Assembly: GCA_965214565.1 (NCBI GenBank) | Contig: OZ243951.1 | Location: 1,017-65,016, forward strand | DNA: 64,000 nucleotides | Source: Candidatus Aldehydirespiratoraceae bacterium | GTDB lineage: Bacteria; Actinomycetota; Acidimicrobiia; Acidimicrobiales; Aldehydirespiratoraceae | Direction of reading: 5' to 3' | Shown here: piece by piece, positions 3,133-41,423 of the stretch | Position numbering within the stretch: position 1 is the stretch's first letter | How the letters are laid out: each line of letters begins with the position of its first letter | Program-made: the position numbers and the translations under genes | The notes under the pieces: generated by a model | The model's database searches: none | What the model was told of the DNA's origin: nothing | What the model saw: only the letters and a program-made list of their open reading frames with translations

Positions 3133-3134
3133 TG

Positions 3135-3162
3135 TTGCAATATATCATTTTTCATGTATTCT
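3135..3162 (+). promoter_or_regulatory. candidate sigma-70-type promoter giving a leaderless or near-leaderless transcript
   Basis: About 40 bp of AT-rich DNA in an otherwise GC-rich region. TTGCAA (3135-3140), a 16-nt spacer, then TATTCT (3157-3162). The ATG at 3171 lies 9 nt after the -10 element and has no SD. Confidence 0.35.
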
Positions 3163-3170
3163 CATTGCTC

Positions 3171-6734: not shown

Positions 6735-7742
6735 TCAGTTCTCGCTCAGTACGCGTCCGAGACGCCGGCTGACCACCGCCACAGCGGACAGCGCCTGCTC
6801 GTAGTCCATACGCGTCGGTCCCAGCACACCGATCATCCCTGTCGTCTCCCCCTCGACCGAATACGGCGCAACGACCAGCGAACATTCGGCCAGAGGCTCG
6901 ACGCCGGTCTCCCCGCCGATGGCGACTCGCATGCCGCGGTCGAGCACATCGCGGATCAACGACACGACCACGATCTGCTGTTCGAGGATGGAGAGCACGT
7001 CGCGGATCTGTTCGACCGCCTCGAACGCGGCCGCAACGCGGGAGACCCCGCCGACGACGATCTCTGCGGTGTGGGCCGCGGCCCGCAGCGCCTCGACGGC
7101 CGCGCTCAGCAGCGGATCGTCGTCGAGTGCCTCGGGTGTCATCTCTATCAGGGACTTGCCCACGACTGTCTCGGCCAGTCGCCGGTTGGCGTCTTGCACA
7201 ATCTGTGGGGTGAGCTCGGTGGCGACCTCGATGGTGCGCTTCTCGATCACCCCGTTTGACATGACCGCAACCACCATCACCACATGCGAGGAGAGGTCGA
7301 CCAGCTGTGTCGAGCGCACGCGGGCGATGTCGACATTGGGGCCCACCACCACAGCGGCGCAGTCCGTGAGCGAGATGAGCAGGTCGGAGGTGCGGGCCAG
7401 AACAGATTCGAGTTCACCGTGGGCATCGGCGAAGAACTGGCGGACCATCCCGCGGTCAGCCCCTACCAGCGAGGGTTCACGTCTACGGAGGGTGTCGACG
7501 AAGAATCGGTAGCCCTTGTCGGTCGGTATCCGCCCCGCACTCGTGTGGGGCTGGGTGAGGTACCCCTGCTCTTCGAGCACTGCCATGTCGTGCCGCACCG
7601 TCGCGGGCGACACGGCGACGCCGGGAGCGTTGGATATCCGCCCCGAACCCACCGGTTGTGCCGTTTCGATGTACTGCTGGACAACGGCTGAGAGGATCGC
7701 TGCCTTGCGGTTGTCGAACACCATGCGCAAATCGTCGACCAT
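6735..7742 (-). CDS. hrcA: heat-inducible transcription repressor HrcA
   Basis: N-terminal winged HTH (RKAAILSAVVQQYIETAQPVGS), HrcA-typical length, and a position directly upstream of dnaJ. Confidence 0.92.
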   Translation of the reverse strand: MVDDLRMVFDNRKAAILSAVVQQYIETAQPVGSGRISNAPGVAVSPATVRHDMAVLEEQGYLTQPHTSAGRIPTDKGYRFFVDTLRRREPSLVGADRGMVRQFFADAHGELESVLARTSDLLISLTDCAAVVVGPNVDIARVRSTQLVDLSSHVVMVVAVMSNGVIEKRTIEVATELTPQIVQDANRRLAETVVGKSLIEMTPEALDDDPLLSAAVEALRAAAHTAEIVVGGVSRVAAAFEAVEQIRDVLSILEQQIVVVSLIRDVLDRGMRVAIGGETGVEPLAECSLVVAPYSVEGETTGMIGVLGPTRMDYEQALSAVAVVSRRLGRVLSEN

Positions 7743-7847
7743 TCGAGAATTGTACCGTTATCTGCTAGCGCAGGGTGTTCAGAAGGCAGTTGCGTGGAGG
7801 TTCAGGTTTCGGTTGCGCAGGCGGTGAGGCTCGCCCGGCGGATGCTG

Positions 7848-10800
7848 CTAGTCGTTGTCTTTGATGGTGCCGGTGGCGTAGGTGAAGTTGAAGATGGTGG
7901 TGAAGGTGCTCTCGTAGGCGTACATTCTGATTGTCTCGTCACCTTCAACTGTGTTGTCGTCGATGATCGGCACAACGATCTCGACTTGGGTTTCTCCTGG
8001 GTTGATCGTGAATGTCCGGTAGGGGATGGTGAAGTCTTGGTTGTATTTGGCGGTGATGTCGAACGCGCCGTAGCCGAGTTTGATTTCTTGGTCGCTGGCT
8101 CTTGAGAGCGTCGCGACGAAACGCAGCCCTTGGGGGTCGCCTTCAGAGGCCGAAGCGTCGGCCACGGTCAGGGTTATCGGGCCTGACTGGGCTGGGGCGC
8201 CGTTGGACGTGTCGCCGTCGGATGTGTCGGTGGTGTCGGCGGCTGGGGGATCGTCGTCGTCGGAGATCGTGACCGTGGCGGCACCGTTGTTCGACGACAC
8301 GGTGTAGCCGTTGCCAGAGTTGATGGTGGCGGTGACCGTCCCGTCGGGTTCGTCGGTGCTGTCGTCGTTAGTCGCGATGATGAGGGTGTAGGTGCCTGAG
8401 GTGGGGATGGTGACGGTCTGGGTGCCGGTCGACGCGAAATCACCGCTCTGGGTGATCTTGACGGTCACGTCGAGAGCAGCGGAGGGCGCGGGGTCGGCGG
8501 TGATCGTGAACGTTGCGTCGTCGCCTTCGGTGACGTCAGCGCTGGCAGTGATGCTGATCTCGGGGACGTCGTTGTCGGCGACTGCGACGGTCGCCGTGTT
8601 CTGTGTGGATGACACGGTGTAGCCGGCACCGGTGTTGATGGTGGCGGTGACCGTCCCGTCGGGTTCGTCGGTGCTGTCGTCGCCGGTGGCGACGGTGAGG
8701 GTGTAGGTGCCTGAGGTGGGGATGGTGACGGTCTGGGTGCCGGTGGACGTGAACGCGCCGGTTTGGGTGATCTTGACGGCCACGCTGAGTGCTGTGTGCG
8801 GTGCAGGATCCGCAGTGATCGTGAACGTGGCGTCTTCGCCTTCGGTGACGTCTGCGCCGGCAGTGATGACTATTTCGGGGACATCGTCGTCTGACACGGC
8901 GACGGTCGCCGCGCCCTGTGTGGACGACACCGTGTAGCCGGAACCAATGTTGATGGCGGCAGCAACCGTCCCGTCAGGCTCGTCGACGCTGTCGTCGGTG
9001 GTGGCCACGGTCAGCGTGTAGCTGCCTGTTGTGGGGATGGTGACGGTCTGGGTGCCGGTGGACGTGAACGCGCCGGTTTGGGTGATCTCAATGGTGACGT
9101 CGAGATCGGCTGTGGGTGCGGGGGCAGCGGTGATCGTGTACGTGGCGTCGCCGCCTTCGGTCACATCTGTGCCTGCGGTAATGCTGATTTCGGGTTCGAC
9201 GGGCGGTGGGGCCGGTTTGGCGGTTTGGGCTTGTTCGATGCATTCCAAAGCCTCCCGGAACGGCCGCCATCCCGACCAGCGGGTTTCGCTTTGGCTTGCC
9301 TCGGCCGCGGTGAACGGTTTGAGTTGGGTGTCGGCAATGTCGCCGAACGCGATGAGCACTCGACGCCAGTTCTTGCCGTAGCCCGGAGCGCGGTGCTTGT
9401 TGAGGTCGTAGTATCTGCGGGCGAGTTTCAGCGTGTCGTCAGGAACACATTCGGGTGGCACAGCGGGCGGGTCGCTGCTGGTTTCATCCTCACCGGAGAG
9501 GTCGACGGTCGTGGTGGCGGCGAGGCTATCGAGGTACACGGCGGTTCCGCTGTCGGTGTCATATCCAGGGGTGACAGTGACAGTGACCGTGACGGGTCCG
9601 GCGATGCCGTGATCGAGCGTGTGGCTGGTCGTGGCGATGCCGTCGAACACGCCGGCGGACTGTGCGGTTCCGTCGGCGGCTTCGGCGCTGTAGGCCACGA
9701 GGTACTTGTCAGCGTCCGCTACCGCATCCCAGGAAACGTCGACGCTGGTACCGCCGCCGGTTGCGAGCGTGAGGTTCGCGACGACCGCCGCCGGTTCCGG
9801 CGGCGCCTCGGCGGGCTGTGGGACATCCCGGGACGGGCTATTCTGCGGTGTGTGCTGGTTCGTGTACTGACGGCGCAAAAACGGACAGTCGGAGGGCCAA
9901 TGGAACCGGCCGCTGGAGACGTAATGGGTTTGTAGATTCAAGGTGTCCGCAGTGACGACCGGGGCGTTCGGGTTGCCCCACTCGCGCATATGCCATGTGT
10001 ACGGACCGCCGGGGGTCTGCTTAGAAAAGTACACCAGCCGATAAAACTTGGTGGAATCCAGGTCGCGGTACTGGCCGATCTCGAACTCCTTAGGATAGTG
10101 GCGGAACACCTCGCCGAGGCTGAACGCCCGCATCTTGTCCACCGTCGCCCGCCGGAACCCACCACCAGTCCCGGAATGCACCACGTCCGCGCACTGGGTG
10201 CCCTCAACGTGCAGACTGCGGGTGTTGTGCACCCAGATAACCCGATAACACTTCCACGAAATCCGTGTCTGCGTGTGCCGGTCACCACCGTAGCCACCGT
10301 CCCAACAACCCGCAGCAGTCGGCTCGCCGTCATGGAACGTGAACGTCAACGACTGTTGTGGCGTGCCGTTCCGCGTGAACGAGATCCCCGTGAACGTCAA
10401 CGGGTCATACCCGGCGATCTGAGTCACGTTGATCGTCACCGTCACATCACTCGCAGGTTGTGACGACAGGCGCACGAAATAGTCCAGCACCTCCCCCGGG
10501 GTGATATCAGGCGCAGGACCCAACCCCGGCGTCGACGTCAACGTGTTCGGGCGGAAAATCCCCCACCCGCGATTAGCCCGCTTATGCGCGTTGTACGCAG
10601 CCTCGTCATAGGTACGGCGATACTCGAACACCTCCAACTCCGGCGCGTCGGTCACCAACACCGACACAGTGCCCAGGCTGGAGCTGCTGTAACCGCCGCC
10701 GGACGCGGTCTGCGTCAAATTGAACCTCCGGTTGCGATTATCGCTGGGCTCGTCGACTGCGGTGACGGTAACCTGCTGTGGTTCGGTGTAGTTCGACGCC

Positions 10801-13800
10801 GTGAACGTCAGAGTCGCCGGACTGATCGTCGCCGCCCCCGAACCCACCGACTCGATCACCGTGAACGTCGACGGATCAAACACCGCCCGGCCCGCCGCGG
10901 TGCCGATTGTGACCGTCGTGGAGCCCCCCGACGGGGCGGTGGTCAACCGCACGCAGTAAGTGGTCTTGCCGCCGTTCTCGGTGATCCTGAGACTCGACAC
11001 GCTCAACACGGTGCTCTGCGCCGAGCAGGCCGAGGCGTCGTCGTCGTCGATGGTCAGATCCACCTCCGAGGACGCCGAGACGACCATCGCGCCGCCGCCG
11101 GTCACCACCGTCCCCGAACCCGTGCCCGTCACCACGTTCAACGTCGCGGTGATCTCCTCGTCGGAGGTATCGCCGTCGTCGCCAGCTGCGGTGGCGATCG
11201 GTGTGAGCGTCACCGTCGCGGTCTGCACGGTGTTGGAGTCCGAGCCGGTGAACGTCACCCGCGCCGTCGTCGAAGTCGCGTTGGCGAGCGCCACACCAGT
11301 GCCCGACGCGGTGACCGCGAAGTCCGGGGTGGCGTGGCCGGGCAGCCGGGCGCCGGTGCCCGAAGCCAGCGTGATCGTCGCCACCACCGACTCGCCCGAG
11401 ATCAGCGGGCGGCCCAACGACACCGTCAGCGTCGCGGTGTCAGAAGCGTCCTGCTCGCTCATGGCCGTGTCCGATGCCGTCAGCGTCACCTCGGTTGCCT
11501 CGTCGTCGGTGATCCGCACCTTGTCGGATCCGTTGGTGCCCGAAACGGTGTATGAGTCGGTGCTCGAGCAGCCAGCGGTGCTCGACGGCACCGCGGTGAC
11601 GGTGATGACGCTGTCCAAATCATCCGCAGCGGTGTCGGTCCACGCCACGTCGATCGACCCGGTCTGCACGCCGGCTTGGAAGCTGACGGTTTTGATGCCC
11701 TCGTCGGCTGCGGCGACCCGGTCAGTGTCGCCCGACTCTTCGACGCGCACGCATACCGTCAGAGCGGTCGCGGGCTGGGCGTCCAATGTCAGCGGGAACG
11801 AAACGGTGGCGTCGGCCTCGGACTTTTCGACCTCGTCGTCGTCGTTGCGGTTCTCGCCCTCGCCGGTCATCAGCCGCACTGAAACCTCAGGTCCCGTCGC
11901 GGAGGGGTCGATCTTGAACACCGGCGACATCGCCAACATCCGCAGCTCGGTGGTGTTTACCGTGTTTGCCGTGTGGTCGAGCGGCGTGTTGCCCAACGTA
12001 TCCATGCTTCCGAATCTGGGATTGCTGTCACCGAGTGTGTGGCCGCTCACCTCTACGCCGGCGTCGCTGCTGCCTGTCCAATAGATCGACATTTGCGCCG
12101 TGGCCGCTTCGTTGGTGGCGTGGCTTCTGTTGTTGGTGCCGGTGTCCCAGGAGGCGTCGTAGAAATCGAAATAGTTGTCGGCCACTTTGTCTGTCGACGG
12201 CGCAGCGAGCCAATAGATCTTGGTGCCGCTGTCCGAATCGCTGGTAGATCTATCGGTGTAGCCGCCTGCGTTGGAGTTCAGCGCCGGGTCCCACATGGCG
12301 GTGTTCTCGCGTGCATCCACGGTGGCGGTGCTGGCGATCACCGACACCAGCCCCGAGTAGGGCAACAGGGCGGCGTGGCCGTGCTCGGCGACCACCAGCT
12401 GGGCCCAGTCGTTGTAGGCGTCGATGTCGGTGGAGACGGCGGTGCGTCTCTGCGAAGTGATGAAGATCAGCCGGAACTCGTCGCCCGCGGACAAACCCGA
12501 CGGCGCCAACGCCCAGTCGGCTGCCACCTCAATATCGCCGGTGTCGTCGTCGACGAGTACGACGTTGATCGGGCCGCCGGTCTGCTCACCGACGTTGATG
12601 CCGCCGCTGGCGGTCGCGCCCGACCCGAAATCGACGATCACATACGGTTGGGTGCGGACATCATTATCAACCGGCGTCAACCGCAGCGTCGCCGTCGTCG
12701 CGCCCGCGGTGAACACCACCGCCGGATTCTGCGCCGAGTGCGGCCCCGACGTGTCCAACGCGACGCCGGTCTGCGTCGTCGGTGCCAACCCGAAGGTGTA
12801 ATCGGCAGTGACGGCCGCTCCGGTCACAGTCAAAGGCACCGTAAGCGTCTCAGAGCCGCTCAGCGGCCCGTCCAGCCTGAGGGTGATGGTGCGGTAGCCG
12901 GTGCTGTTGCCGGCGCCCTCCACCGCGTTGCCGTCGGCGTCGCCGTCAGAACCCAACATGGCCACGGCGACCGCCGAGGCGTCGTTATCGTTGACCCGCA
13001 CCTCAGCAGACGCAGCAGACGAGTCGATCCTGTAGTTGTCGCTGTTTTGCAGGGTAATGGTGATCGGCCCCGACGTCTCGACGATGAAATCCTCAACAGT
13101 CGGCACTGTGAACGTGGCCGAGCTCTGCCCCGCGGGCAGGGTGCGGGTGCGGTTCCCCTGCTGGCCCGCAGCAACGAAATCGGCGCCCGACGCGTCGGCG
13201 ATGCCCACGTTGACGGTGAGGTTGCGGTCTGGCGCGGTGCTGGCGGTGACGGTGAACTCTGCCGCGGTGCCCTCGGTGACCGCCGCGCCCGGCGTGATGC
13301 TCAGCGTCACGTCCTCGTCGTCGACGGTCGCCGCGACGCTGCCGGTTACCGACCCGTAATCGGCGCCCGACGACGAATGCGACAAAGTCACCGAATCATC
13401 GGTCAGATCAGTGTCATGCACGCCGCGCACCGTGACCTTGCGGCCGATATACCAGTTCGAAGCATCGAACTGCACCGAAGCCTGGTCGCCGTTCGTGCTG
13501 TCGTCGGCGTCGAGCGTCAACGTCGCCGATGTCTGGCCCGACACCGTCACCGTCACCGTCACCGTGCCCGACGGTTCCGTGGCGAGCCGCAGCCGATACG
13601 CAGCTGTGCCGCCCTCGTCCACCTCAACAGTGGACGGTACGACCAGACCCGGCGCCGTGCGGTCCTGATCCGCGATGTACAGCGTCGTTCGGTCAGGGGT
13701 TGCCGCGGTCGCCCGCGGCGTCTCACTGCTCGCGATCCTCACGACGATCGTCTCATCGGCTTCCTGCATGCTGTCAGCAATAATGGGAATGCTGATGGTG

Positions 13801-16800
13801 TGCGTGCCCGACGCGTTCCCCGAAGGGATCGTCACACTCGTCGACGGGGCGGTGTAGTCGCTGCCGTCAGTGGCGGTCCCCCCAAACGCCAGAGTCAAGT
13901 CGATTTGCTGCTCGGTTTGCTGGTTCAGCGTGAGATTCACATCGAAGGTGCCGCTGTCCTCAAGCACCCAATACTCCGGTTGCTCAAAACCGATCTCGAC
14001 GGCGTCATCGTCGATGATCGTCACAATCGTGACACCACGGGCCCGCAAATAGTCAGGCGAGGCAACGAGACCCACACGAAACGACTCCGAATCCTCGAAC
14101 ACCCCGTCCTCACGGGTCGCTACGTCAAAAGCCACCGACGTCTGCCCCGCGGGGATCATCACCGACGCCTCGCCCGCGGTGAAATCCTGCCCCGCGGTCG
14201 CACCGCCGCCCTCCTCGACGATGTAGGTGAGCGTCAGATCCGCGGTCGGCGCAGGACTGGCCATCAACGTCAACCTGACCGTCTCGCCCTCATTAGCCGA
14301 ACTATTTCCTCTAGTAAAGGCCACCTCCGGCATATCAGCCGACGCCACGGTCTTGACAATCTCCGACACCGCGTAGAACCGGTTCTCGCTGGCGGCCGCC
14401 TCAGTGCCAGACGACAAAGACTGCGACGCGCTGCCGCTGCCGACCCGCGCGCCTGGACCGTAAGCCGGCGTCGCGGTGCCCAGCGGGTTGGAGCTGGTGG
14501 TGCAGTTGTTGTTCATCCCCGTCCACACCTTCGCCCCGTCACCCACACTGCCGTCCTCGTGGCGCAACCGGGTGGCATCCGCAGACGACCACCGGCCGGT
14601 CCACGCCTGATTGCACAACCGCCAATAGCTCGACGACACCTGCTCGCCGCCCGTCCCCAGCCAATACAACACTGTCCCCGAGTCCCTCGCCCTCGTCGTG
14701 CCGTCGGCAAAGCCGCCCGAGCCGCCATTGGCCGACGTGTCCCAGATGCCGACGTGGTTGCGGCCGTCCACGGTCGCAGTCGACACGAACGCCCTGAAGA
14801 AGCCGACATAAGGCAGCAAATCATCCCCGCCGTTGGCGACCGCCGCAGCGCGCACGAAATGGTCGTAATCCGCGATGTCGGTCGACGTCGCCAGCCCGCC
14901 CTCAGACGTCATGAACATCAACCGGTACTCCGCATTGTTTAACACCGCAGGACGGAAAGCCGTGCCCGGCGGCAGCACGATGTCGCCCGTCTCGTCGTCC
15001 ACCAACACCACGCCGATCGGGCCGCCGGTCGGAGTGTCCAAAGTGACACCACCGGAGCCGCTGGGCGTGCCGTAATCGACGATCACATACGGCTGCGTGC
15101 GGTCCGAGTTGTTCACCGGCATCAAACGCAATGTCGCGGTCTGCGCCCCCGCCGCGAACACCACCGCCGGGTTCTGCGCGCTGTTCGAGCCGGATGTGTT
15201 CAGCGACACGCCCGTCTGCGTGCTCGGCTGCAACGCGAACGTGTAATCAGTCGCCACAGTCGCGCCGACGACTGTCAGCGGCACCGTCACCTGTTCCGAG
15301 CCGGTCAACGCCCGGCCCAGAGTGAGCGTGATGGTCCGGTAGCCGGTGGTGCCAGGGCCGCCCTCGACGGCGTTACCGTCGCTGTCGCCGTCAGAAGCAG
15401 ACATCGTGACCGCGACCGGCGGCGTGTCGTCGTCGGTGATCGTCACGGTGGTGGTCGCCGGCATGCCCACCGTGTAGCCGGTGCCGCTCGCCAGTGTCAT
15501 GGTGAAGGTCTCGTCGCCCTCCACCGTGCTGTCGTCGGTGATGTTGACGCTGAAGGTGTGAGACGTCATGGCGGCGGGGAACGTGAACGTTGTCGGCGGC
15601 GCGGTGTAGTCCGACGCCTCCGTCGCGGTCTCCGCCTGCGAGTCGAGGTTCACCGTCAACGCCGACGACGGCGCGCTGCTCGCGTTCACCGTCACATCAA
15701 CGCTGCCGCCGTCCTCCGCTGCGCTGTACGCCGCCGAAGCAAACGTCAGCTCCGGCGTCGCGGCGGCCTCGACTTTGAACACCGGCGACATGGCCAGCAT
15801 CGGCAACGAATCATCCGACATCGCAGATGTGTCAGACAGCGGATTGCCAAGCGAAACACGAGCAACCGACGGCATAGTCGCGCCAAGCCGACGCGTCATA
15901 TTTGGGTCTTTCCTCCCGTCGTGGATGTGGCTGCCAGTCCAGAACCCTGCCGTAACGGTACGCGCAGCACCCGACTCGACAGTGTCGGCGCCGGACTGGT
16001 CCGCGCCGCCGTCCCAGGAACCATCGAAGAAATCGAAATAGTTGTCCGCGACCTTGTCCGACGACGGCTCAGCCAGCCAGTACACCTTCACCCCGCTGCT
16101 CGACGCGTTCGCCGAGCCGTCAGCCCACGCGCTTCCCGTGTGCATGCCAGCATTGACACGGGCATCGACTGTTGTGGTGCTGCCCATCACCCGCACCAGA
16201 CCCGCGTAAGGCTTGAGGCCAGCGTGACCGCCCGCGGCGACCACGCCTTGGGCCCACTCGTTGTACACGTCAATATCGGTCGACTCCGCAGTCCGAGTCT
16301 GCGACGTGATGAACATCAACCGAAACTCATCACCCCCCGACAACCCCGACGGCAACAACGGCCAATCAGCAGCAACCTCAAAATCGCCCGTCTCGTCGTC
16401 CACCAGCACCACACCCACCGGGTCGCCCGACACGGCACCCAGCGCCGCACCCGACGCGCTCGGCGCCCGCGAACCAGTGCCGTAGTCGACGATCACATAC
16501 GGCTGTGTACGGACGTTGTTATCGACCGGCATCAAACGCAAAGTCGCGGTCTGCGCTCCAGATGCGAACACCACCGCCGGGTTCTGCGCGCTGTTCGTGC
16601 CCGATGTGTTTAGCGACACGCCGGTGTTCGAGCCGCTCAGCCCGAAGGTGTAGTCATTGCTCGCGCCGACCGTCGCACCGGTCACAGTCAACGGCACCGT
16701 AACCGACTCACTACCGGTGAGCACCCGACCCAACGTCAAGGTGATGGTCCGATACCCCGTCGCGCCGCTGGCGCCTTCCACAGCGTTGCCGTTGGCATCA

Positions 16801-19800
16801 CCATCAGACCCCGCCATCGACACGGTGACAGGTCCGGGGGCTTTGATCGTGAAATCCGCGGACAGCGACGCTCCGTAAGGAACCGCCTTGGTCGCGGACA
16901 GCGACCGGCGCAACAGCCGACGGCCGACGTTGAGGGTGACTGGGTCATCGGCGGTGATCGCCGACCCCGAATACGACAGCACCACCTCCAAAGAACGATG
17001 CTTGGGCTGGCCGTGTACGTCGCTCATGGCCGCACCGAGCTCGGCACTGTTGACCGTCAACCCTGTCGGCGCCCCGGTGAACGTCAACAACGCCAGACCC
17101 GAAGCCGTCAACGATCCGCCGCTTCGCAGATTCCCGGCGCCTCGGTCGCCGCCTTCGGGTCCTAAGCCGTCGCCGTCGCCGACGCCGAAGAACGTGACAT
17201 GCTCAGGCGTCAAGGTGAGCGTGACAGTGCCGCCGCTGGCGAACGCGGACGACTGCACCTGCGCGGGTGTGACGCCCAGCGTCGGGGTCGTGTCGGTGTC
17301 AGCCACCCGCACCGTCACATTCCCACTCAACGCGTTGAAATCGTTGTCCGACGACGACGTGCTGTGCGAAATCGTCACCATCCGCGCCCCGCCGGTGTTG
17401 ATGGTGTTGTCGTCCACACCCGAAACCGTGACCTCTTGTCCGGTGTCCCAGTTCGTTGTCGTGAACGTCAACGAAGCCGGGTTGACCGCCGCGCCCACTG
17501 CCGCGGTGATCGCCACCGTCACATCCGCCGACGGCGCCTTGTTCAACTTCACCTCGTAGGTGTCGGTGTGGCCCGATTCCTCGCTCACCGCCACCCCCTC
17601 GCCGACGTCGAACACCAAGGCAGCCGACGGCACCACCGTGACATCCACCTGCGGCCCGACCATGTTCACCGGATACCTCGAACTGGCAGTACCCGCCGAG
17701 CTCGACACAGAATGGGTGACACCCCCGGCGCCTCCGCTGCCCCCGTTGATCGTGACGGTTTGTGCAGACATCCAGTTGCCGGCGTTGAACGACACGGTCA
17801 CGGGACTGACAGTCAGACTGCCGGAACTGTTGACAGCAGTGACATGCAACGTCACCGCGCCGCCCGGGTTGCTCGCCAACCGGATCCCGTACTCGGCGGT
17901 GTCGCCCTCATTCACCGACACCGCAACCGGCACAACCACAATCTTGTGACCGGCGTCGACGGTGGTCGCGGTCACGCTGTTGATCGGAATCTGGTGATAC
18001 GGGTTGCCAGCATCCGATACCTCCGCCGCATGGGAGACGGTGACAGTCTCCGCGGCGGAGTCGCCGTCGTTGACGGCGCGCAGCGTCACCGTCTGCGCCG
18101 AGCTCCAGTTCCCGGTATTGCCGTGAGTGAAAGTCAGCATCGACTGGTCGCCGGCCATGTCGCTGTCGGTGTCCACCGCCACCGCCGTCGCGTCGCCCGA
18201 GGACACCGTCACCACCACATTCGCGCCCGGATCAGAGTCGAGCACCACCGTGTAGGACATCTCCGCATCAGTGGCGTGAAGCTCAGTCAAAGTGACAGCA
18301 GACCCAGAAAGCGTCACACCAGCGGTGCCGTCGTCGTCGTCGGTGAGGGTGATCGTGGTCTCGGCGGTGCTGCCTGCCCGGGCGTCGACGGCGAGGGTGC
18401 CGTCGAGCTGCACTTTGAACGTTTCGGTGCTCTCGGCGGTGCCGTCATCCACCAGGTCGATGGTGAGGGTCTTGGTCGTGTCGCCGGTGGCGAATTCGAG
18501 GTAGCCGGACTGGGCGGTGTAGTCGGTCGGGTGGGCTGCGGTGCCATCCGCGGTGGTCCAGTAGATCGACAGGGGCACCGCTGTGGTCCCGGTCTTGGTG
18601 ACGGTGACGCCGATTGTGCCTGCGTCCTCGGCAGCGACGGCCGTCGCCGAGGCGAACGCGACGTTGGGCAGGTCGGCTTTGTCGGTGATGATGCCGATGC
18701 CTGTGCTCTTGCCGGCGGCGAGGCCCGGCGCGTCGGTGCCCGTCGGGGTGCCGAGAGTGACCCGGAAGTAGTGGTCGCCCTCATAGGTGCTGTCGTCGGT
18801 GGTCGCCACGGCGATGGTCGCGGTGGTGGCGCCCTGGGCGATGGTGACGCTGCCGGCGGTGTCGGCGAAATCAGAGGCGTCGGCGACGATGTGAGCGGGG
18901 TCGGTGGCGATGCCAAGGCCGTGGGCGAAGGTGTAGGGCACGGTGATGCCCCCGGTGGGGGCGGCCTCAGACATCGTCACGGTGAAGCTGACCGCGCTGC
19001 CTTCGGCTGCGCGAGAACGCGGCGTGATCTCCACAGCGCCGCCGACCACCTCGAACACAGACGTGGACAGCGCGTACAGCGGGCGCATCTCGGTGGCGGG
19101 CTCTGCGTCGGTGCAGGCCGGCGTCCGGGCGCGTATCGGCCCCAGCGGCGAGAACCTGCTGGAGTCGTTGCCGTCGAGCTTGCCGACGTGCACATTCGGT
19201 TCGCCGACCTGGCCCCGGTTGTGACCGCCAGTGCCGCCGGAGCAGAAGGCGTGGTTCGTTCGGTGGCCCTCCTCGGTACCGCCGGTCCAGTAACCGTCGG
19301 TATCGACAGTCGCGGCGGTGCCGTCGGCGTGGCGCGGCGACTCGCTGTCCCACGTACCGTCGATGAAATCGGGGCTGGCGTTGTCGGCGACCTTGTCGCC
19401 GCCCACCCAGTAGATCGGGTCGTTCGGCTGAACTCCCTCGTCGATCCGGTACATGTTGAACTGCGCCCGGTCACGGGCGCCGTAGGTTCCGGTTCCCCCC
19501 CCGTCGCCGAGGGTCGTGACGAGCCCGAAGAACGACTCGGCGTGCGGGACGAGCTCGGGGACGCCGCCGCCTTTGAGCTGGGCGCCGGTGATCTCGGCGC
19601 GCACGAAATCGTCGTAGACGGACCCTTGACGGCTGGTGGCGGCGGTCTCGCCGTTGGTGACATACAGCAGACGGAACGTGTCACCGACACCGACGCCCGA
19701 CGGCAGCAGCGGCCAGTCGAGGGGCACCTCGACGGTCTCTCCTGTGCTCGGCGGGGCCGCGTCGTCGTCTGCGATGCCGTACCAGGCTTGCGCGTCGGCC

Positions 19801-22508
19801 TGCGCTGCGGTGACGCCTCCGCCGAGGTTCGTTTGGGGGTTGAGATGTCTCTGCGGGGAGAACACTTTGCCGTCGTCGGTATAGTTGCGCACCGACTGGA
19901 GACCGCGGGGGAAGCTGATGTGGAACTCCTCGTCGGAGACGTCGCCGTCGTCGAAACCGTCTCGGGTTTTCAGCACGATCGTCGCGGTCTGGGCGCCGGC
20001 GCCAGCGAACTCCAGCCAGCGGAACCCGACATGCGCGGGCGTGTACCGGTTCACCGCCTCCACCGACACGCCCGTGCCGACAGCGGCCATCTCGAAATCG
20101 TTGTGATGGACCGGCCACGCCACGTTCGCGCTGTAACGCGGCCCACGAACCGAGCTGACCACATCGCACGCCACGTAATCCGCCCACCGCTCCAGCGACT
20201 CATCGCTCCAGTCTTGGAGGTTCAGGTCGCATTTCACATCAGGGTTCTGGCGATGCCCGGTCGCCTCCAGATACAACGGCACCCGCACCCACTCGTTCGC
20301 TGTGAGGGCGCGACCCAAGCTGATCGTCAGAGAACGGTCCACCCGAGTGGCGTCCCCCTCCACCATCACCTCAGAAATCTGGGTGCCCGAGGGGCTGGTA
20401 CGCACCCCTGTCCCGGCCATCGACACCTCGGTCGGGTCGTCGTCCACCAGCGTTAGGGGGTGGCTCACGTCGCCGATGCTGGCGTAGTTGCCGGCGCCGG
20501 TGACGGCGTGCGTGATCGTCAGCCCGATATCAGCCGCATCAGCATCGTTGTCCTCCGCCGACACCGTCACCGTCTGCGGCATGGGCCAATTCGACGGTGT
20601 GAACGTCAAAGAGGCGCCCGTCGTGATCGTCGCTTTGGTGGTGTCGCTGCTCGACACCGCCACGGTCACATTCGAGGTCGGCGCCGCGGAAAGCCGCACC
20701 TCATAGGAGTAGTCGCCGCCTACGGTGACGACCTTCTCCTCGATGTCGTATAACACGATACTGCCTTGCGTCCTCTCGACCACCGGCACGTTCTCGACGA
20801 TGTCTCCCTCCAAAAGCCGACCCCCGCCGTTGTCGATGACCGCGAGGCCTGCCTCCGCCTCGTTGAGCGTGATGCGATACAAGCGCTCAGCGAGACGCAC
20901 CGGCCCACAACCATCGCCAGAGCACACACCACCCGCCAAGTTCGTTGTGATGTGGTTCCCCTTCCACGGATCCGACGTCGGATAAGTCCTGACCACCAGA
21001 TTGTTGGTCGCGGTGTCACCGTCGTCAGTAGCCGCGGTCACCACCACCGTCGCCTCAGCCGCGGACGGTCCCGTGAACCTCAACTCGCCCGTCGCGCCAT
21101 CGGCCGAATCCGCATACGCCACGCCTTGCGGGCTGCCGTCGAGCGACAGCGAGAAATGCGTGCCCAGCGTCGCGCCCTGAAACGCGAGCGGCACCGTCAG
21201 CATCTCCCCCGCTGCCAGCCCACGACCCAACGTCACCCGGAACTTCGCGGTGTCCGTGCTGCTGCCCTCGGTCGCGACCTGGTCCGTCGTCGCGGCGTGA
21301 TGCAACTCGATCTCGGTCACCTCGTCGTCGCCGGTCACCGTCAACGGCACATCCGGCAACACGATGCCCGTGTATTCCGTCGGCACGGTGCTCGTGTTCG
21401 GGCACTTCACCGTCTGGGGTCCCAAGCCGACATCGATGCGGCAGTTGGTCGTGTCGTAGTAGTCCTCGTCGTACTGATAGACCGTGAACACAAGATTGCC
21501 CGACAGCTCCCCGCCAGGAGTGTCCACCGCATTGTTGAACGCCGCAATTGACACCTCGAACTCCGACACCCACTCATCTTGCTCAACCGTGCCGCTTCCG
21601 TCGACGTCGAGTCCGGTGCCGTCGGGGATGTTGACTCCGTCCAGGTTGATCGAGAACGCGTGACGAGGCGTCGTGGGACCCGCCCCCGCGTGCTGGGCGA
21701 AACCGCCCCTGATGTTCGCGATCGGCGTTTCAGTCCCCAGCTTGCCCATCGTCGTCGTATCAACGAGGCCCACCACCACGATGCTCTGAGTCGGACGGCT
21801 CTCATAGGGAATGGTGACCGTGATGGTGTCGGACACGTCGCGGTTGTCGTTGTTGGTGAGCCGCTCCATCATCGTCGTCGAGCCACCGCTCACAGTGATC
21901 GACGCCCCCGTCCCGGTCAGCGTCGTGTCCGACACATCGGTGATCGTCACCGTCCAATCACCCAAAACCGTGCCGCCCTCACAATCAGCGGTCGTACACA
22001 GCTGTACCCCGAACGTCTCATCATCAGAATCGCCGTCGGAATGGGCCTCCACCTCGAAACGCAGACGCTCGCGCAAAGAGTTCACAGACGCCCGGCGCCC
22101 CTCACCCGCCGCGACCTCAACCAGACCATCGCGACGCCAATGAACCTTGAACGTGATATCCGACGGTTCGGCCGTGTACCCCGTCAAAGGCTTGAAAAAC
22201 ACGTAATACGCCGGACGATCCGGCAAATTCGAAATCTCGAACTGGCGAGTCTGACCCTCCTCGATCACCGTGCGATGCAAAAACGCCCGGCTATACGCCG
22301 ACACGCCCGACGAGCCCGCCGACTGCGCCGCAGCCTCAGAAACCCCCAGACCCGCACCCGACAACACCGGAACCGGTGCCACCACCAACAACGACGCCAA
22401 CAGCGCCACCGCCAAGCCGCACACCAACCCCCGACGGCCAACCCGCGACCGAACGAGAAAGGCTAAGCCCCCCCCCCCCCCCCGCAGGAGAAGACCCAAA
22501 CACACCAC
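7848..22508 (-). CDS. giant secreted Calx-beta / beta-sandwich repeat protein (4,886 aa), adhesin- or surface-layer-like
   Basis: One uninterrupted 14,661-nt ORF. The N-terminus has a basic stretch (RSRVGRRG), a hydrophobic core (LAVALLASLLVVAPVPVL) and AAAQ. Many Calx-beta-type motifs are present, for example ITDDSTVEGDETFTMTL, IIDDNTVEGDETIRMYA, LVDDGTAESTETFKVQL and TTDDSTYEGDHYFRVTL. Other beta-sandwich repeats carry an LTFT..NW...QTVTV signature. Composition is acidic and rich in T/A/V/G. I saw no LPXTG, SLH, RTX or C-terminal TM segment. Confidence 0.9.
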   Translation of the reverse strand: MVCLGLLLRGGGGGLAFLVRSRVGRRGLVCGLAVALLASLLVVAPVPVLSGAGLGVSEAAAQSAGSSGVSAYSRAFLHRTVIEEGQTRQFEISNLPDRPAYYVFFKPLTGYTAEPSDITFKVHWRRDGLVEVAAGEGRRASVNSLRERLRFEVEAHSDGDSDDETFGVQLCTTADCEGGTVLGDWTVTITDVSDTTLTGTGASITVSGGSTTMMERLTNNDNRDVSDTITVTIPYESRPTQSIVVVGLVDTTTMGKLGTETPIANIRGGFAQHAGAGPTTPRHAFSINLDGVNIPDGTGLDVDGSGTVEQDEWVSEFEVSIAAFNNAVDTPGGELSGNLVFTVYQYDEDYYDTTNCRIDVGLGPQTVKCPNTSTVPTEYTGIVLPDVPLTVTGDDEVTEIELHHAATTDQVATEGSSTDTAKFRVTLGRGLAAGEMLTVPLAFQGATLGTHFSLSLDGSPQGVAYADSADGATGELRFTGPSAAEATVVVTAATDDGDTATNNLVVRTYPTSDPWKGNHITTNLAGGVCSGDGCGPVRLAERLYRITLNEAEAGLAVIDNGGGRLLEGDIVENVPVVERTQGSIVLYDIEEKVVTVGGDYSYEVRLSAAPTSNVTVAVSSSDTTKATITTGASLTFTPSNWPMPQTVTVSAEDNDADAADIGLTITHAVTGAGNYASIGDVSHPLTLVDDDPTEVSMAGTGVRTSPSGTQISEVMVEGDATRVDRSLTISLGRALTANEWVRVPLYLEATGHRQNPDVKCDLNLQDWSDESLERWADYVACDVVSSVRGPRYSANVAWPVHHNDFEMAAVGTGVSVEAVNRYTPAHVGFRWLEFAGAGAQTATIVLKTRDGFDDGDVSDEEFHISFPRGLQSVRNYTDDGKVFSPQRHLNPQTNLGGGVTAAQADAQAWYGIADDDAAPPSTGETVEVPLDWPLLPSGVGVGDTFRLLYVTNGETAATSRQGSVYDDFVRAEITGAQLKGGGVPELVPHAESFFGLVTTLGDGGGTGTYGARDRAQFNMYRIDEGVQPNDPIYWVGGDKVADNASPDFIDGTWDSESPRHADGTAATVDTDGYWTGGTEEGHRTNHAFCSGGTGGHNRGQVGEPNVHVGKLDGNDSSRFSPLGPIRARTPACTDAEPATEMRPLYALSTSVFEVVGGAVEITPRSRAAEGSAVSFTVTMSEAAPTGGITVPYTFAHGLGIATDPAHIVADASDFADTAGSVTIAQGATTATIAVATTDDSTYEGDHYFRVTLGTPTGTDAPGLAAGKSTGIGIITDKADLPNVAFASATAVAAEDAGTIGVTVTKTGTTAVPLSIYWTTADGTAAHPTDYTAQSGYLEFATGDTTKTLTIDLVDDGTAESTETFKVQLDGTLAVDARAGSTAETTITLTDDDDGTAGVTLSGSAVTLTELHATDAEMSYTVVLDSDPGANVVVTVSSGDATAVAVDTDSDMAGDQSMLTFTHGNTGNWSSAQTVTLRAVNDGDSAAETVTVSHAAEVSDAGNPYHQIPINSVTATTVDAGHKIVVVPVAVSVNEGDTAEYGIRLASNPGGAVTLHVTAVNSSGSLTVSPVTVSFNAGNWMSAQTVTINGGSGGAGGVTHSVSSSAGTASSRYPVNMVGPQVDVTVVPSAALVFDVGEGVAVSEESGHTDTYEVKLNKAPSADVTVAITAAVGAAVNPASLTFTTTNWDTGQEVTVSGVDDNTINTGGARMVTISHSTSSSDNDFNALSGNVTVRVADTDTTPTLGVTPAQVQSSAFASGGTVTLTLTPEHVTFFGVGDGDGLGPEGGDRGAGNLRSGGSLTASGLALLTFTGAPTGLTVNSAELGAAMSDVHGQPKHRSLEVVLSYSGSAITADDPVTLNVGRRLLRRSLSATKAVPYGASLSADFTIKAPGPVTVSMAGSDGDANGNAVEGASGATGYRTITLTLGRVLTGSESVTVPLTVTGATVGASNDYTFGLSGSNTGVSLNTSGTNSAQNPAVVFASGAQTATLRLMPVDNNVRTQPYVIVDYGTGSRAPSASGAALGAVSGDPVGVVLVDDETGDFEVAADWPLLPSGLSGGDEFRLMFITSQTRTAESTDIDVYNEWAQGVVAAGGHAGLKPYAGLVRVMGSTTTVDARVNAGMHTGSAWADGSANASSSGVKVYWLAEPSSDKVADNYFDFFDGSWDGGADQSGADTVESGAARTVTAGFWTGSHIHDGRKDPNMTRRLGATMPSVARVSLGNPLSDTSAMSDDSLPMLAMSPVFKVEAAATPELTFASAAYSAAEDGGSVDVTVNASSAPSSALTVNLDSQAETATEASDYTAPPTTFTFPAAMTSHTFSVNITDDSTVEGDETFTMTLASGTGYTVGMPATTTVTITDDDTPPVAVTMSASDGDSDGNAVEGGPGTTGYRTITLTLGRALTGSEQVTVPLTVVGATVATDYTFALQPSTQTGVSLNTSGSNSAQNPAVVFAAGAQTATLRLMPVNNSDRTQPYVIVDYGTPSGSGGVTLDTPTGGPIGVVLVDDETGDIVLPPGTAFRPAVLNNAEYRLMFMTSEGGLATSTDIADYDHFVRAAAVANGGDDLLPYVGFFRAFVSTATVDGRNHVGIWDTSANGGSGGFADGTTRARDSGTVLYWLGTGGEQVSSSYWRLCNQAWTGRWSSADATRLRHEDGSVGDGAKVWTGMNNNCTTSSNPLGTATPAYGPGARVGSGSASQSLSSGTEAAASENRFYAVSEIVKTVASADMPEVAFTRGNSSANEGETVRLTLMASPAPTADLTLTYIVEEGGGATAGQDFTAGEASVMIPAGQTSVAFDVATREDGVFEDSESFRVGLVASPDYLRARGVTIVTIIDDDAVEIGFEQPEYWVLEDSGTFDVNLTLNQQTEQQIDLTLAFGGTATDGSDYTAPSTSVTIPSGNASGTHTISIPIIADSMQEADETIVVRIASSETPRATAATPDRTTLYIADQDRTAPGLVVPSTVEVDEGGTAAYRLRLATEPSGTVTVTVTVSGQTSATLTLDADDSTNGDQASVQFDASNWYIGRKVTVRGVHDTDLTDDSVTLSHSSSGADYGSVTGSVAATVDDEDVTLSITPGAAVTEGTAAEFTVTASTAPDRNLTVNVGIADASGADFVAAGQQGNRTRTLPAGQSSATFTVPTVEDFIVETSGPITITLQNSDNYRIDSSAASAEVRVNDNDASAVAVAMLGSDGDADGNAVEGAGNSTGYRTITLRLDGPLSGSETLTVPLTVTGAAVTADYTFGLAPTTQTGVALDTSGPHSAQNPAVVFTAGATTATLRLTPVDNDVRTQPYVIVDFGSGATASGGINVGEQTGGPINVVLVDDDTGDIEVAADWALAPSGLSAGDEFRLIFITSQRRTAVSTDIDAYNDWAQLVVAEHGHAALLPYSGLVSVIASTATVDARENTAMWDPALNSNAGGYTDRSTSDSDSGTKIYWLAAPSTDKVADNYFDFYDASWDTGTNNRSHATNEAATAQMSIYWTGSSDAGVEVSGHTLGDSNPRFGSMDTLGNTPLDHTANTVNTTELRMLAMSPVFKIDPSATGPEVSVRLMTGEGENRNDDDEVEKSEADATVSFPLTLDAQPATALTVCVRVEESGDTDRVAAADEGIKTVSFQAGVQTGSIDVAWTDTAADDLDSVITVTAVPSSTAGCSSTDSYTVSGTNGSDKVRITDDEATEVTLTASDTAMSEQDASDTATLTVSLGRPLISGESVVATITLASGTGARLPGHATPDFAVTASGTGVALANATSTTARVTFTGSDSNTVQTATVTLTPIATAAGDDGDTSDEEITATLNVVTGTGSGTVVTGGGAMVVSASSEVDLTIDDDDASACSAQSTVLSVSSLRITENGGKTTYCVRLTTAPSGGSTTVTIGTAAGRAVFDPSTFTVIESVGSGAATISPATLTFTASNYTEPQQVTVTAVDEPSDNRNRRFNLTQTASGGGYSSSSLGTVSVLVTDAPELEVFEYRRTYDEAAYNAHKRANRGWGIFRPNTLTSTPGLGPAPDITPGEVLDYFVRLSSQPASDVTVTINVTQIAGYDPLTFTGISFTRNGTPQQSLTFTFHDGEPTAAGCWDGGYGGDRHTQTRISWKCYRVIWVHNTRSLHVEGTQCADVVHSGTGGGFRRATVDKMRAFSLGEVFRHYPKEFEIGQYRDLDSTKFYRLVYFSKQTPGGPYTWHMREWGNPNAPVVTADTLNLQTHYVSSGRFHWPSDCPFLRRQYTNQHTPQNSPSRDVPQPAEAPPEPAAVVANLTLATGGGTSVDVSWDAVADADKYLVAYSAEAADGTAQSAGVFDGIATTSHTLDHGIAGPVTVTVTVTPGYDTDSGTAVYLDSLAATTTVDLSGEDETSSDPPAVPPECVPDDTLKLARRYYDLNKHRAPGYGKNWRRVLIAFGDIADTQLKPFTAAEASQSETRWSGWRPFREALECIEQAQTAKPAPPPVEPEISITAGTDVTEGGDATYTITAAPAPTADLDVTIEITQTGAFTSTGTQTVTIPTTGSYTLTVATTDDSVDEPDGTVAAAINIGSGYTVSSTQGAATVAVSDDDVPEIVITAGADVTEGEDATFTITADPAPHTALSVAVKITQTGAFTSTGTQTVTIPTSGTYTLTVATGDDSTDEPDGTVTATINTGAGYTVSSTQNTATVAVADNDVPEISITASADVTEGDDATFTITADPAPSAALDVTVKITQSGDFASTGTQTVTIPTSGTYTLIIATNDDSTDEPDGTVTATINSGNGYTVSSNNGAATVTISDDDDPPAADTTDTSDGDTSNGAPAQSGPITLTVADASASEGDPQGLRFVATLSRASDQEIKLGYGAFDITAKYNQDFTIPYRTFTINPGETQVEIVVPIIDDNTVEGDETIRMYAYESTFTTIFNFTYATGTIKDND
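8250..9194 (-). repeat. three tandem 315-bp (105-aa) Calx-beta-like repeats
   Basis: Units span 9194-8880, 8879-8565 and 8564-8250. Each begins PEI(S/V)ITA..DVTEG.DATFTITA.PAP and ends ATV.VSDDDV. The exact 315-nt period is confirmed by the antisense ORFs starting at 8392 and 8707, which are nearly identical; a third antisense ORF at 9031 repeats the same peptide from its fifth residue, 9 nt in from the extrapolated unit position 9022. Confidence 0.9.
11907..12971 (-). repeat. internal module D (355 aa)
   Basis: VAVAMLGSDGDADGNAVEG...YRTITLRLDG...RTQPYVIVDFG...DEFRLIFITS...IYWLAAPSTDKVADNYFDFYDASWD...IYWTGSSD...MLAMSPVFKID. Confidence 0.85.
14352..15416 (-). repeat. internal module C (355 aa)
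   Basis: VAVTMSASDGDSDGNAVEG...YRTITLTLGR...RTQPYVIVDYG...EYRLMFMTS...VLYWLGTGGEQVSSSYW...VWTGMNNN...FYAVSEIVK. Its DNA is very similar to module B over the first half. Confidence 0.85.
15768..16829 (-). repeat. internal module B (354 aa)
   Basis: VTVSMAGSDGDANGNAVEG...YRTITLTLGR...RTQPYVIVDYG...DEFRLMFITS...VYWLAEPSSDKVADNYFDFFDGSWD...FWTGS...MLAMSPVFKVE. Confidence 0.85.
19044..20429 (-). repeat. internal module A (divergent, 462 aa): beta-sandwich plus endostatin/DUF1554-like unit
   Basis: Starts EVSMAGTG. Contains WPLLPSGVGVGDTFRLLYVTN...YWVGGDKVADNASPDFIDGTWD...YWTGGTEEG. Ends LYALSTSVFEVV. Confidence 0.7.
22468..22483 (-). repeat. homopolymeric tract, C16 on the plus strand (G16 in the gene sense)
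   Basis: Counted directly: ggctaag + 16 c + gcaggag. As annotated it lies in codons 9-14 of the giant ORF (R-G-G-G-G-G). Confidence 0.95.
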
Positions 22509-22682
22509 GACAAGCGGAGAAGCTCACACGACCACTCAAACGGCTCAACATCCCAAACTCCTCAACTCCACAGAACCTGCAACGAACGAAGCATTGTAAC
22601 AGCCCGGCAATTCAACGCGACCAGCGGTCCGTACCGCCCGCGACGCAACACGAAGCGACGCAGCCACGACTGCACTCGGCCC

Positions 22683-24467: not shown

Positions 24468-24583
24468 CTGCCACGAAACGATACCCGCCACAGTTCCAAA
24501 CAGACCCGAACGACCGGTGGTGCGATCCGGTGAGCGGGGCCGATACGCTTGTCGGTCGTTCAACCGATCACCAGCAGGTAACC

Positions 24584-41398: not shown

Positions 41399-41423
41399 CC
41401 CGGTTGCCACCGCGCCCCTAGCC

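Follow-up and report, generated by a model that had tools for sequence, protein, structure and literature searches.

A 14.7-kb gene for a Calx-beta repeat protein in the lepA-hrcA spacer of a Candidatus Aldehydirespiratoraceae genome: a candidate phase-variable, fibrillar adhesin-like protein

Fibrillar adhesins and fibrillar adhesin-like proteins are very long, exported, fast-evolving, accessory proteins in which a stalk of tandem sandwich domains carries putative adhesive domains (PMC8286594, PMC9210967). In this study, we have analyzed a 64-kb stretch of DNA (64,000 nucleotides in full, referred to below as the window) from an Acidimicrobiales bacterium of the family Candidatus Aldehydirespiratoraceae, in which a single gene between lepA and hrcA encodes a protein of 4,886 amino acids (aa) that resembles these adhesins in its length, export, stalk, putative adhesive domains, rapid evolution, and accessory nature. 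Unlike theirs, its putative adhesive module is an endostatin fold that Pfam does not cover and that is found four times along the stalk, not once at the tip; there is also no sortase, SLH, LysM, or transmembrane anchor. The giant RTX adhesins LapA, MpIBP, SiiE, and the Aeromonas RTX adhesin (PMC12077191) are similar in their size of 0.5 MDa, their Ca2+-dependent immunoglobulin-like extender, and their interspersed ligand-binding domains; in contrast to them, the window protein has no nonapeptides, no C-terminal signal for a type I secretion system, and no LapG-type N-terminal retention module, but has an N-terminal Sec signal and comes from an actinobacterium. A third likeness is to the eukaryotic-like proteins of sponge-symbiotic Actinobacteriota of the genus UBA11606 (PMC11706023), which come from the same family, have the same Calx-beta and fn3 domains, and are accessory; that study counted domains genome-wide, and the gene family, insertion site, endostatin-fold modules, and homopolymer tracts reported here are not described there. 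Finally, one homolog, L085, resembles SLH-anchored proteins in that it ends in SLH repeats (31.4 bits) after a poly-Pro linker, whereas the window protein has neither and ends at its last Calx-beta domain. Judged by its sequence, the window protein is none of an RTX adhesin, a sortase substrate, and an SLH protein.

The 5' end of the gene invites comparison with contingency loci, of which Neisseria opc is one known example. Others that depend on homopolymers are the poly-G tract of Neisseria gonorrhoeae pilC (in the signal-peptide region), the poly-C promoter tract of Bordetella fim, the poly-G tracts of Campylobacter, and variants in Mycobacterium tuberculosis (PMC1891110, PMC8355987, PMC10334774). 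Like these loci, the surface-protein genes of the family described here have a long G/C tract at their 5' ends, the length of the tract differs between close strains, and in the window the frame of the start is set by the tract length. Unlike the classical loci, the tracts (14 to 32 nucleotides [nt]) are unusually long, occur in either polarity, and lie mostly in the leader; the host is a marine actinobacterium, uncultured and probably mutualistic, in which switching is predicted.

We favor, at a probability of roughly 60%, the view that the gene encodes a recently acquired, phase-variable, fibrillar adhesin-like, Sec-exported, acidic surface or extracellular protein of ~500 kDa, a reading that draws on sequence comparisons and structural models. 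An export signal and a stalk are present, the endostatin-fold modules are candidate adhesive domains, and an anchor is lacking. The ~24 beta-sandwiches would form a Ca2+-stiffened stalk, the four endostatin-fold modules would serve as ligand-binding units for a host or matrix glycan or protein, and a basic four-helix domain or the N terminus may retain the protein on the cell. Changes in the length of a run of 16 G residues (G16) by strand slippage would then give stochastic on/off or graded expression; the switch may be translational, the tract lying between the Shine-Dalgarno (SD) sequence with its ATG and the signal peptide, or may depend on the leader or promoter, in the manner of classical contingency loci. 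The setting is consistent with such a role, because in the Aldehydirespiratoraceae (UBA11606) sponge-symbiotic clade, proteins with Calx-beta, fn3, and cadherin domains are significantly enriched (PMC11706023).

Giant repeat adhesins are common, and the open reading frame (ORF) itself is unsurprising. What the locus offers is a clean, datable case in which a 15-kb single gene has been dropped into a housekeeping spacer without a mobility gene, in a lineage with sponge-symbiotic relatives. It also brings to light two domain families of considerable size that lie outside Pfam, the endostatin-fold module and a conserved four-helix domain. Phase variation is a hallmark of mucosal pathogens, and the conserved G/C tracts, with their extreme length, suggest that it acts on the host-interaction proteins of uncultured marine symbionts as well. 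We put forward only tentatively, as a rather doubtful extension, the joint proposal that marine, host-associated Acidimicrobiia run a pathogen-style contingency system in which the tracts would switch mobile giant proteins within a symbiont population, the endostatin-fold modules would mimic the NC1 domains of collagens XV and XVIII and engage host matrix or receptors, and the four-helix domain would be a new noncovalent wall anchor.

The features on which the insertion is based are as follows.

7848 to 22508, minus strand: giant gene as the maximal ORF, 4,886 codons with GTG at 22508; true start uncertain
7757 to 22676, minus strand: insertion relative to the closest relatives, 14,920 bp comprising one gene, a 5' region of ~170 nt, and a 3' region of ~90 nt
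22683 to 24563, minus strand: lepA (Pfam), the upstream flank; homology to relatives stops at its stop codon
6735 to 7742, minus strand: hrcA (Pfam); homology to relatives restarts at its 5' side
5630 to 6733, minus strand: dnaJ (Pfam)

An earlier reading of the window, made from its letters alone and called the original prediction here, had described a single 4,886-aa minus-strand ORF between lepA and hrcA, making up about 23% of the window, as an accessory insertion into a housekeeping gene string. The ORF listing and translation reproduced its coordinates and GTG start exactly, with no internal stop in the 14,661-nt frame and a share of 22.9%, and the comparison with relatives bore out the insertion. 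A LepA scan with one genome per species gave 80 loci, all from Acidimicrobiales, the best matches (95 to 97% identity) being metagenome-assembled genomes (MAGs) of "Candidatus Aldehydirespiratoraceae." In 76 of the 80 relatives, lepA has hrcA (with dnaJ) downstream of it on its own strand; the gap measures at most 100 nt in 52 and at most 300 nt in 64, and tblastn found a homologue of the giant protein within 10 kb of the locus in none of the 80. The closest relative, L004, is 91.5% identical at the nucleotide level over 20 kb and collinear on both sides (blastn); its alignment breaks at window position 22677 and restarts at 7756, such that 12 bp in L004 replace the 14,920 bp of the window. 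The collinear flanks also break there in blastn comparisons with L002, L001, and L003, and the junctions align base for base with the four relatives. At this base-level resolution, the left edge of the insert is the lepA stop codon and the right edge lies just upstream of a conserved GGTACAAT, which is 7 nt before the hrcA ATG (window positions 7742 to 7765; around 11890 to 11915 in L002 to L004). The hrcA transcript is probably leaderless and produced from this GGTACAAT, read as a -10 element, and the insertion replaced everything upstream of that element. From these alignments, the gene is a single-gene, 14.9-kb insertion gained after the split from relatives that are 87 to 91% identical at the nucleotide level.

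None of the marks of an integrative element or genomic island (an integrase or transposase, att or direct repeats, a tRNA target) was found at the window locus. There are no direct or inverted, att-like repeats of at least 8 nt at the two insert junctions, no integrase within the insert, which consists of one gene only, and no tRNA or Rfam family near the insertion, the nearest tRNA being at 41326. Strict scans for sigma-70 promoters and terminators at both junctions gave nothing convincing, and the window contains no CIRCE (controlling inverted repeat of chaperone expression) operator.

The original prediction also took the giant gene to occupy the slot of hemW, and this part did not hold: a hemW-like gene is missing from the lepA-hrcA interval of every relative, and no hemW was found among the larger window ORFs that were scanned. 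Comparison across these loci shows the lack of hemW at this position to be ancestral in the entire order and unrelated to the insertion. The larger lepA-hrcA gaps, found in a dozen relatives, hold unrelated cargo and never hemW; examples are a 361-aa ORF in L053, an HNH/DUF222-like ORF in L069, a photolyase-like ORF with others in L074, and a GGDEF protein in L078. The spacer is therefore a recurrent landing place. Since the codon use of the giant gene matches that of its host, the donor would be a related genome, with entry by recombination into a permissive spacer; codon choice is like that of the neighboring genes, and the GC content at third codon positions (GC3) is 0.82 along the whole length in the called frame, compared with 0.74 to 0.87 in the neighbors. 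In L001, the lepA-hrcA spacer (11870 to 12123) carries ~2.5 tandem copies of a ~95-nt repeat, the start of which, GAGGCCGAGCGAATTCA, resembles the window bases just after the lepA stop codon, GGGCCGAGTGCAGTCG.

The second main feature of the locus is the tract at the 5' end of the gene, which the original prediction did not mention.

22468 to 22483, minus strand: G16 homopolymer on the coding strand, codons 9 to 14 of the maximal ORF; candidate slipped-strand switch
22549 to 22563, minus strand: GAGGAG (22563 to 22558), 6-nt spacer, and ATG (22551 to 22549); best-looking translation start
22593 to 22598, minus strand: TACAAT, which may be a -10 element and lies upstream of the tract; a complete sigma-70 consensus promoter was not found

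G16 is the only G/C run of at least 10 nt in the 64 kb, where 0.34 would be expected, and there are none in 1.41 Mb of related Acidimicrobiales DNA. The SD sequence and ATG are in frame with the signal peptide and main ORF only at tract lengths of 12, 15, 18, and 21, GTG codons are in frame at 13, 16, and 19, and a TTG is in frame at 14, 17, and 20. As assembled, with G16, only GTG codons without an SD sequence are in frame and the SD-preceded ATG is out of frame; because codons 9 to 14 are the tract, the start codon and its in-frame status with the best start are uncertain. In the window, the interval from the tract to residue 28, where the Arg-rich n-region is located, contains no canonical start.

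Such tracts were present at all 10 of the homolog or paralog loci examined, with lengths of 14 to 32 nt and mostly 30 to 130 nt before the signal-peptide start, as follows.

L081, 1127 to 1142: C16
L082, 1137 to 1168: C32
L083, 3585 to 3606: C22
L084, 9940 to 9958: G19, with an additional G13 at 9810 to 9822
L085, 9956 to 9969: G14
L086, 9934 to 9955: C22
L087, 7859 to 7873: C15
L088, 6247 to 6269: C23, versus C14 in L089 at 6259 to 6272
L088, 13630 to 13646, second gene: 17-nt tract, versus 16 nt in L089 at 13655 to 13670, ~11 nt upstream of the called start

Among the homologs, the loci to which this comparison applies, tract length differs between close strains: it is 16, 32, and 22 nt in L081, L082, and L083, which are 92 to 97% identical, and 23 versus 14 nt and 17 versus 16 nt in L088 and L089, which are 98.9% identical over 12.8 kb. 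When compared in either orientation, in a test for an invertible segment, the flanks of the tracts share no sequence across lineages except the homopolymer. The members of the family have in common a hypermutable tract that is located either in the 5' leader or in the first codons. This fits a contingency locus by analogy, since a long 5' homopolymer above background and length polymorphism between close strains were both observed; the tract probably makes expression switchable.

Directly after the poly-C of L081 there is an imperfect (CA)n-like stretch (1143 to 1170) that the sister strains L082 and L083 do not have, and the 40 nt after the tract are hypervariable among these three strains. 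Within the window gene, a G8 run on the coding strand (window positions 19495 to 19502; Gly codons at aa ~1003 to 1005, in the first endostatin-fold module) could be a second slippage site.

The mature protein has a mass of ~498 kDa, a pI of 4.2, and a net charge of about -360. It comprises ~30 domains, the order of which was obtained by self-comparison of fragments and by self-iterated profiles (self-jackhmmer): ~24 beta-sandwich modules (11 Calx-beta, 7 divergent Calx-like [D], and 6 CLIPPER/cohesin-like [C]), 4 endostatin-fold modules (B), 1 fn3 domain, and 1 basic four-helix domain.

21339 to 22325, minus strand: N-terminal region (aa 62 to 390), no Pfam match; family specific, with 5 related protein clusters
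19878 to 21314, minus strand: C1 (aa 399 to 540), D1 (583 to 691), and C2 (697 to 877), beta-sandwich modules (self-jackhmmer)
19098 to 19739, minus strand: endostatin-fold module B1 (aa 924 to 1137) (self-jackhmmer, model, Foldseek)
17286 to 19004, minus strand: two Calx-beta (aa 1169 to 1392) and three D-type Calx-like modules (aa 1416 to 1741) (Pfam, self-jackhmmer)
15723 to 16832, minus strand: cassette C3 and B2 (aa 1893 to 2262), the modeled segment (AlphaFold2, Foldseek)
14298 to 15419, minus strand: cassette C4 and B3 (aa 2364 to 2737) (self-comparison, self-jackhmmer)
12981 to 14345, minus strand: two Calx-beta (aa 2722 to 2949), D5 (2968 to 3070), and Calx-beta (3068 to 3176) (Pfam segments, self-jackhmmer)
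11865 to 12974, minus strand: cassette C5 and B4 (aa 3179 to 3548) (self-comparison, self-jackhmmer)
9864 to 11837, minus strand: Calx-beta (aa 3558 to 3670), C6 (3671 to 3825), D6 (3848 to 3956), and D7 (4007 to 4215) (self-jackhmmer)
9489 to 9797, minus strand: fn3 domain (aa 4238 to 4340) (AlphaFold2, predicted local distance difference test [pLDDT] score of 88.5; Foldseek FN3 matches at probability 1.0)
9213 to 9476, minus strand: four-helix domain (aa 4345 to 4432), pI 7.8 (AlphaFold2 model)
7851 to 9200, minus strand: three Calx-like repeats (aa 4437 to 4752), acidic linker, and terminal Calx-beta (4773 to 4886) (self-comparison, Pfam, self-jackhmmer)

The Calx-beta motifs noted in the original prediction correspond to PF03160, which scores 215 bits against a gathering cutoff of 27 (E = 2e-64), with six stretches above threshold; the self-iterated profile raised the number to 11 copies. 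The "LTFT..NW..QTVTV" repeats, likewise noted beforehand, are real and form seven modules, and because the Calx profile recruits them too, they are divergent Calx-like sandwiches. Scans of the whole protein and of ten segments against Pfam and NCBIfam gave only Calx-beta and a weak fn3 match, so that Pfam coverage, through the Calx-beta modules, is about one-quarter; the remaining three-quarters or so without a Pfam family, and the endostatin-fold modules within them, had escaped the original prediction. From the N terminus, the signal peptide (aa 1 to 61) and the family-specific region are followed by C-D-C-B, two Calx-beta, three D, and a 150-aa unique stretch at aa 1742 to 1892; the middle reads C-B, Calx, C-B, two Calx, D, Calx, C-B, and Calx; and the C-terminal part consists of C, D, a D with a basic four-Cys insert at aa 4070 to 4215 (D7, pI 8.7), fn3, the four-helix domain, three Calx-like repeats that are 77 to 81% identical to one another, the acidic linker, and the terminal Calx-beta, after which there is no anchor.

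Each of the four B modules is preceded by one C module. The AlphaFold2 model of one such cassette (aa 1893 to 2260) has a pLDDT of 77 (~80 over the B module) and a predicted template modeling (TM) score of 0.68, and a Foldseek search of the PDB matched the B module to the endostatin structures 1dy1, 1dy0, 1koe, and 1dy2 (target TM score of 0.61 to 0.69, with 0.63 to 0.69 for 1dy1, 1dy0, and 1koe; probability of 1.0; and E values of 7e-5 to 5e-3). The superposition spans nearly the whole endostatin domain, which is the NC1 domain of collagens XVIII and XV and has a C-type-lectin-like fold. The B module differs from endostatin in several respects: the disulfides and Zn site are not conserved, the module occurs in bacteria, its representative clusters exceed 6,700, and a protein often has many copies of it. 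Among 1.84 billion proteins, its profile, with the signature W..L.PSGL..GD.FRLLF.TS ... IYWL...VADNY.DFYDGSWD ... WTGS, found 6,783 representative clusters at E ≤ 1e-3 and 1,844 at E ≤ 1e-30; the proteins concerned (P0042 to P0191) are as long as 7,600 aa and have as many as 14 copies of the module. Ten B-module proteins were scanned, and in none is the module covered by a Pfam family. The module of smaller relatives directly follows the signal peptide and precedes fn3, cadherin, or He_PIG domains, which looks like the place expected of a binding head. A tblastn search of plasmids with the B module gave no match. Of the 10 JGI/NCBI B-module loci (L090 to L099), 6 come from one whole-genome shotgun set (MKWU01). 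The C module was modeled as a beta-sandwich that matches the CLIPPER domain of the fibrillar adhesin 9ifr in Foldseek (E = 2.6e-5) and also resembles cohesins and the Ca2+-binding domain of the sodium/calcium exchanger NCX.

A second model (aa 4225 to 4440; pLDDT, 88.5) shows the fn3 domain followed by a four-helix bundle. The four-helix domain has two conserved Cys residues and is rich in basic and aromatic residues. Only one other part of the protein is nonacidic, and no element of the family is better conserved (60 to 79% identity); the domain forms the true C terminus of stand-alone paralogs (e.g., P0033) and occurs in tandem in others. It has no sequence relative in the PDB or Pfam, and the Foldseek matches of the combined model were dominated by fn3. 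We postulate that it may be a noncovalent wall-binding or docking domain.

Export is predicted from a single feature.

22326 to 22451, minus strand: signal peptide with an R-rich n-region (VRSRVGRRG), a 20-residue hydrophobic core, and predicted cleavage A-A-A|Q-S after residue 61

Its hydropathy peak (2.67 at residues 28 to 46) marks the only hydrophobic segment of the protein, and the AxA|Q site is conserved in five homolog lineages, which upholds the suspected signal peptide and makes it a predicted Sec-type export signal of the kind found in fibrillar adhesins. A twin-arginine (Tat) signal was rejected because the RR pair is not conserved across homologs, and a lipoprotein was rejected because there is no lipobox (GLVC|G has its Cys before the hydrophobic core). 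In agreement with what had been noted from the letters, motif, Pfam, and hydropathy scans found no sortase signal (regular expressions for LPXTG, LAXTG, and NPXTG; the C terminus, ...TGTIKDND, has no hydrophobic segment and basic tail), no RTX nonapeptide (GGxGxD) or HemolysinCabind match, and no SLH (PF00395), LysM, GW, or choline-binding domain or C-terminal transmembrane helix in the giant protein. The composition is acidic and rich in Thr, Ala, and Val, as had been described (T, 13.5%; A, 11.4%; G, 10.3%; V, 9.5%; D, 8.1%). The original prediction had called the anchoring unexplained; it is right that no anchor was found, but this is not unusual, as about half of fibrillar adhesin-like proteins have no known anchor (PMC8286594). 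Taken as a whole, its picture of a signal-bearing Calx-beta protein without an anchor, encoded by an accessory insertion, stands, and its hemW slot does not.

Several observations weigh against the interpretation as a phase-variable adhesin. The surface anchor of fibrillar adhesins is missing, and a protein with no known anchor could be released. The likeness of the B module to endostatin is at the level of the fold only, with 12 to 17% identity; no B-containing segment has a Pfam match at E ≤ 1, neither to Endostatin nor to DUF1554, another candidate family, and no PDB sequence matches the C-B cassette at E ≤ 10. The sponge association of the window genome comes from its relatives only, several of which have names (SB0670, COS4, and RHO3) that look like those of sponge MAGs. 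As regards the tract, ten other B-module genes, from other metagenomes, do not have one, which makes it a mark of this subfamily rather than of the B domain. The tract of L085 and L086 is followed by a good ATG and is therefore in the leader, and a frameshift switch is thus not general; the polarity of the tract (G or C on the coding strand) also differs, which makes a common RNA-level mechanism unlikely. Finally, the tract lengths are those of an assembly consensus, from contigs whose names suggest long-read (HiFi-type) data, and long homopolymers can be misjudged in such a consensus, so that small differences in length are unreliable.

The points on the tract are also the case for the alternative that survives best, unlikely as we consider it: that the tracts are not a switch but neutral by-products of mutation, regulatory or replication-pausing elements of the G-quadruplex or i-motif type, or exaggerations of the long-read assembly, and that expression is constitutive or conventionally regulated. 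Lineage-dependent polarity, tracts upstream of a good ATG, lengths taken from consensus only, and tractless B-module genes would all fit. Against these stand eleven tracts of 14 to 32 nt located 10 to 130 nt before related surface-protein genes, in at least six lineages and four assemblies, with none in the 1.41 Mb of related DNA; the large length gaps between near-identical strains (16, 22, and 32 nt; 14 and 23 nt); and the dependence of the SD-ATG start of the window on tract length.

The adhesive role faces a different and less probable alternative, in which the acidic Calx-beta domains would build a Ca2+-cross-linked layer and the protein would be a structural matrix, envelope, or sheath component, or a Ca2+-sequestering exopolymer, with no specific ligand. 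The low pI, the strong net negative charge, the 18 Calx-type modules, and the lack of a recognizable anchor would fit such a protein, and the one homolog with C-terminal SLH repeats recalls S-layer proteins. This explanation leaves out the four interspersed lectin-fold modules, which as the N-terminal heads of smaller paralogs look like binding domains, and the absence of the gene from the closest relatives argues that it is not a core envelope component.

In support of the favored reading of a phase-variable adhesin, the gene belongs to an accessory family. Its homologs are rare and often broken. In word-indexed searches, the C-B cassette gave only 16 clusters and the N-terminal region only 5, all of them unnamed and derived from ENA assemblies, and a scan of metagenome contigs with the N-terminal 761 aa found no relative. 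Three co-occurring strains of another species (L081 to L083), which are 92 to 97% identical to one another at the nucleotide level, carry a collinear homolog of ~16.5 kb with 50 to 70% aa identity and several frame changes. A conserved Gln codon (window aa ~83) has become an in-frame TAG in L081 (1317 to 1649) and L083 (3759 to 3920) but not in L082 (1317 to 1517), and a deletion has removed 2.4 kb from L083; together with the frame changes, the TAG and the deletion suggest decay of the homolog in that species. Downstream of the homolog, L081 (18944 to 21581) and L083 (19028 to 21224) carry a large serine recombinase (Resolvase, Recombinase, and Zn_ribbon_recom) and a SLFN_AlbA_2/HATPase_c_4/Fic-like gene, and DDE transposase fragments precede the homolog in L083 (2127 to 2688). 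The L085 homolog (10001 to 22161) is split by a DDE_Tnp_1_4 insertion sequence. In L084, a more distant relative with ~70% nucleotide identity in lepA, the homolog (10001 to 21692) consists of a 563-aa product and a 16,600-aa product that runs off the locus; it lies 3.3 kb beyond comEC-folP-holA-rpsT-lepA-hrcA-dnaJ-rsmE, after a DUF4143 gene, and thus in the same neighborhood but in a different slot. The L086 homolog sits among metabolic genes. The different loci, the recombinase and transposase neighbors, and the split by an insertion sequence indicate at the sequence level that the giant-gene family is accessory and mobile.

A family so often pseudogenized raises the prospect that the window gene is itself decaying or silent cargo, a recently landed copy that is switched off or nonfunctional. 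The lesions in L081 to L083 and L085 and the out-of-frame SD-ATG at G16 as assembled are compatible with this view, but a stop-free frame of 14,661 nt with a GC3 of 0.82 throughout would not be expected of a decaying gene, and a GTG is in frame at G16; we regard it as improbable. It is hardly credible that the locus is an assembly artefact, whether through chimerism or through collapse or expansion of a repeat array, as could be feared for a long repetitive protein in metagenome-derived sequence (the original prediction had named collapse and chimerism), because the internal DNA repeats are only 73 to 86% identical, which makes collapse unlikely, both junctions agree with four relatives, and collinear homologs of 14 to 17 kb and more occur in independent assemblies.

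The remaining genes around the locus are housekeeping neighbors identified with Pfam. Further upstream are HolA, a pterin-binding enzyme, and ComEC, and further downstream are a DUF512 radical-SAM protein and Der. A tRNA-Ala(GGC) at 41326 to 41400 is the sole Rfam/ARAGORN match in the 64 kb.

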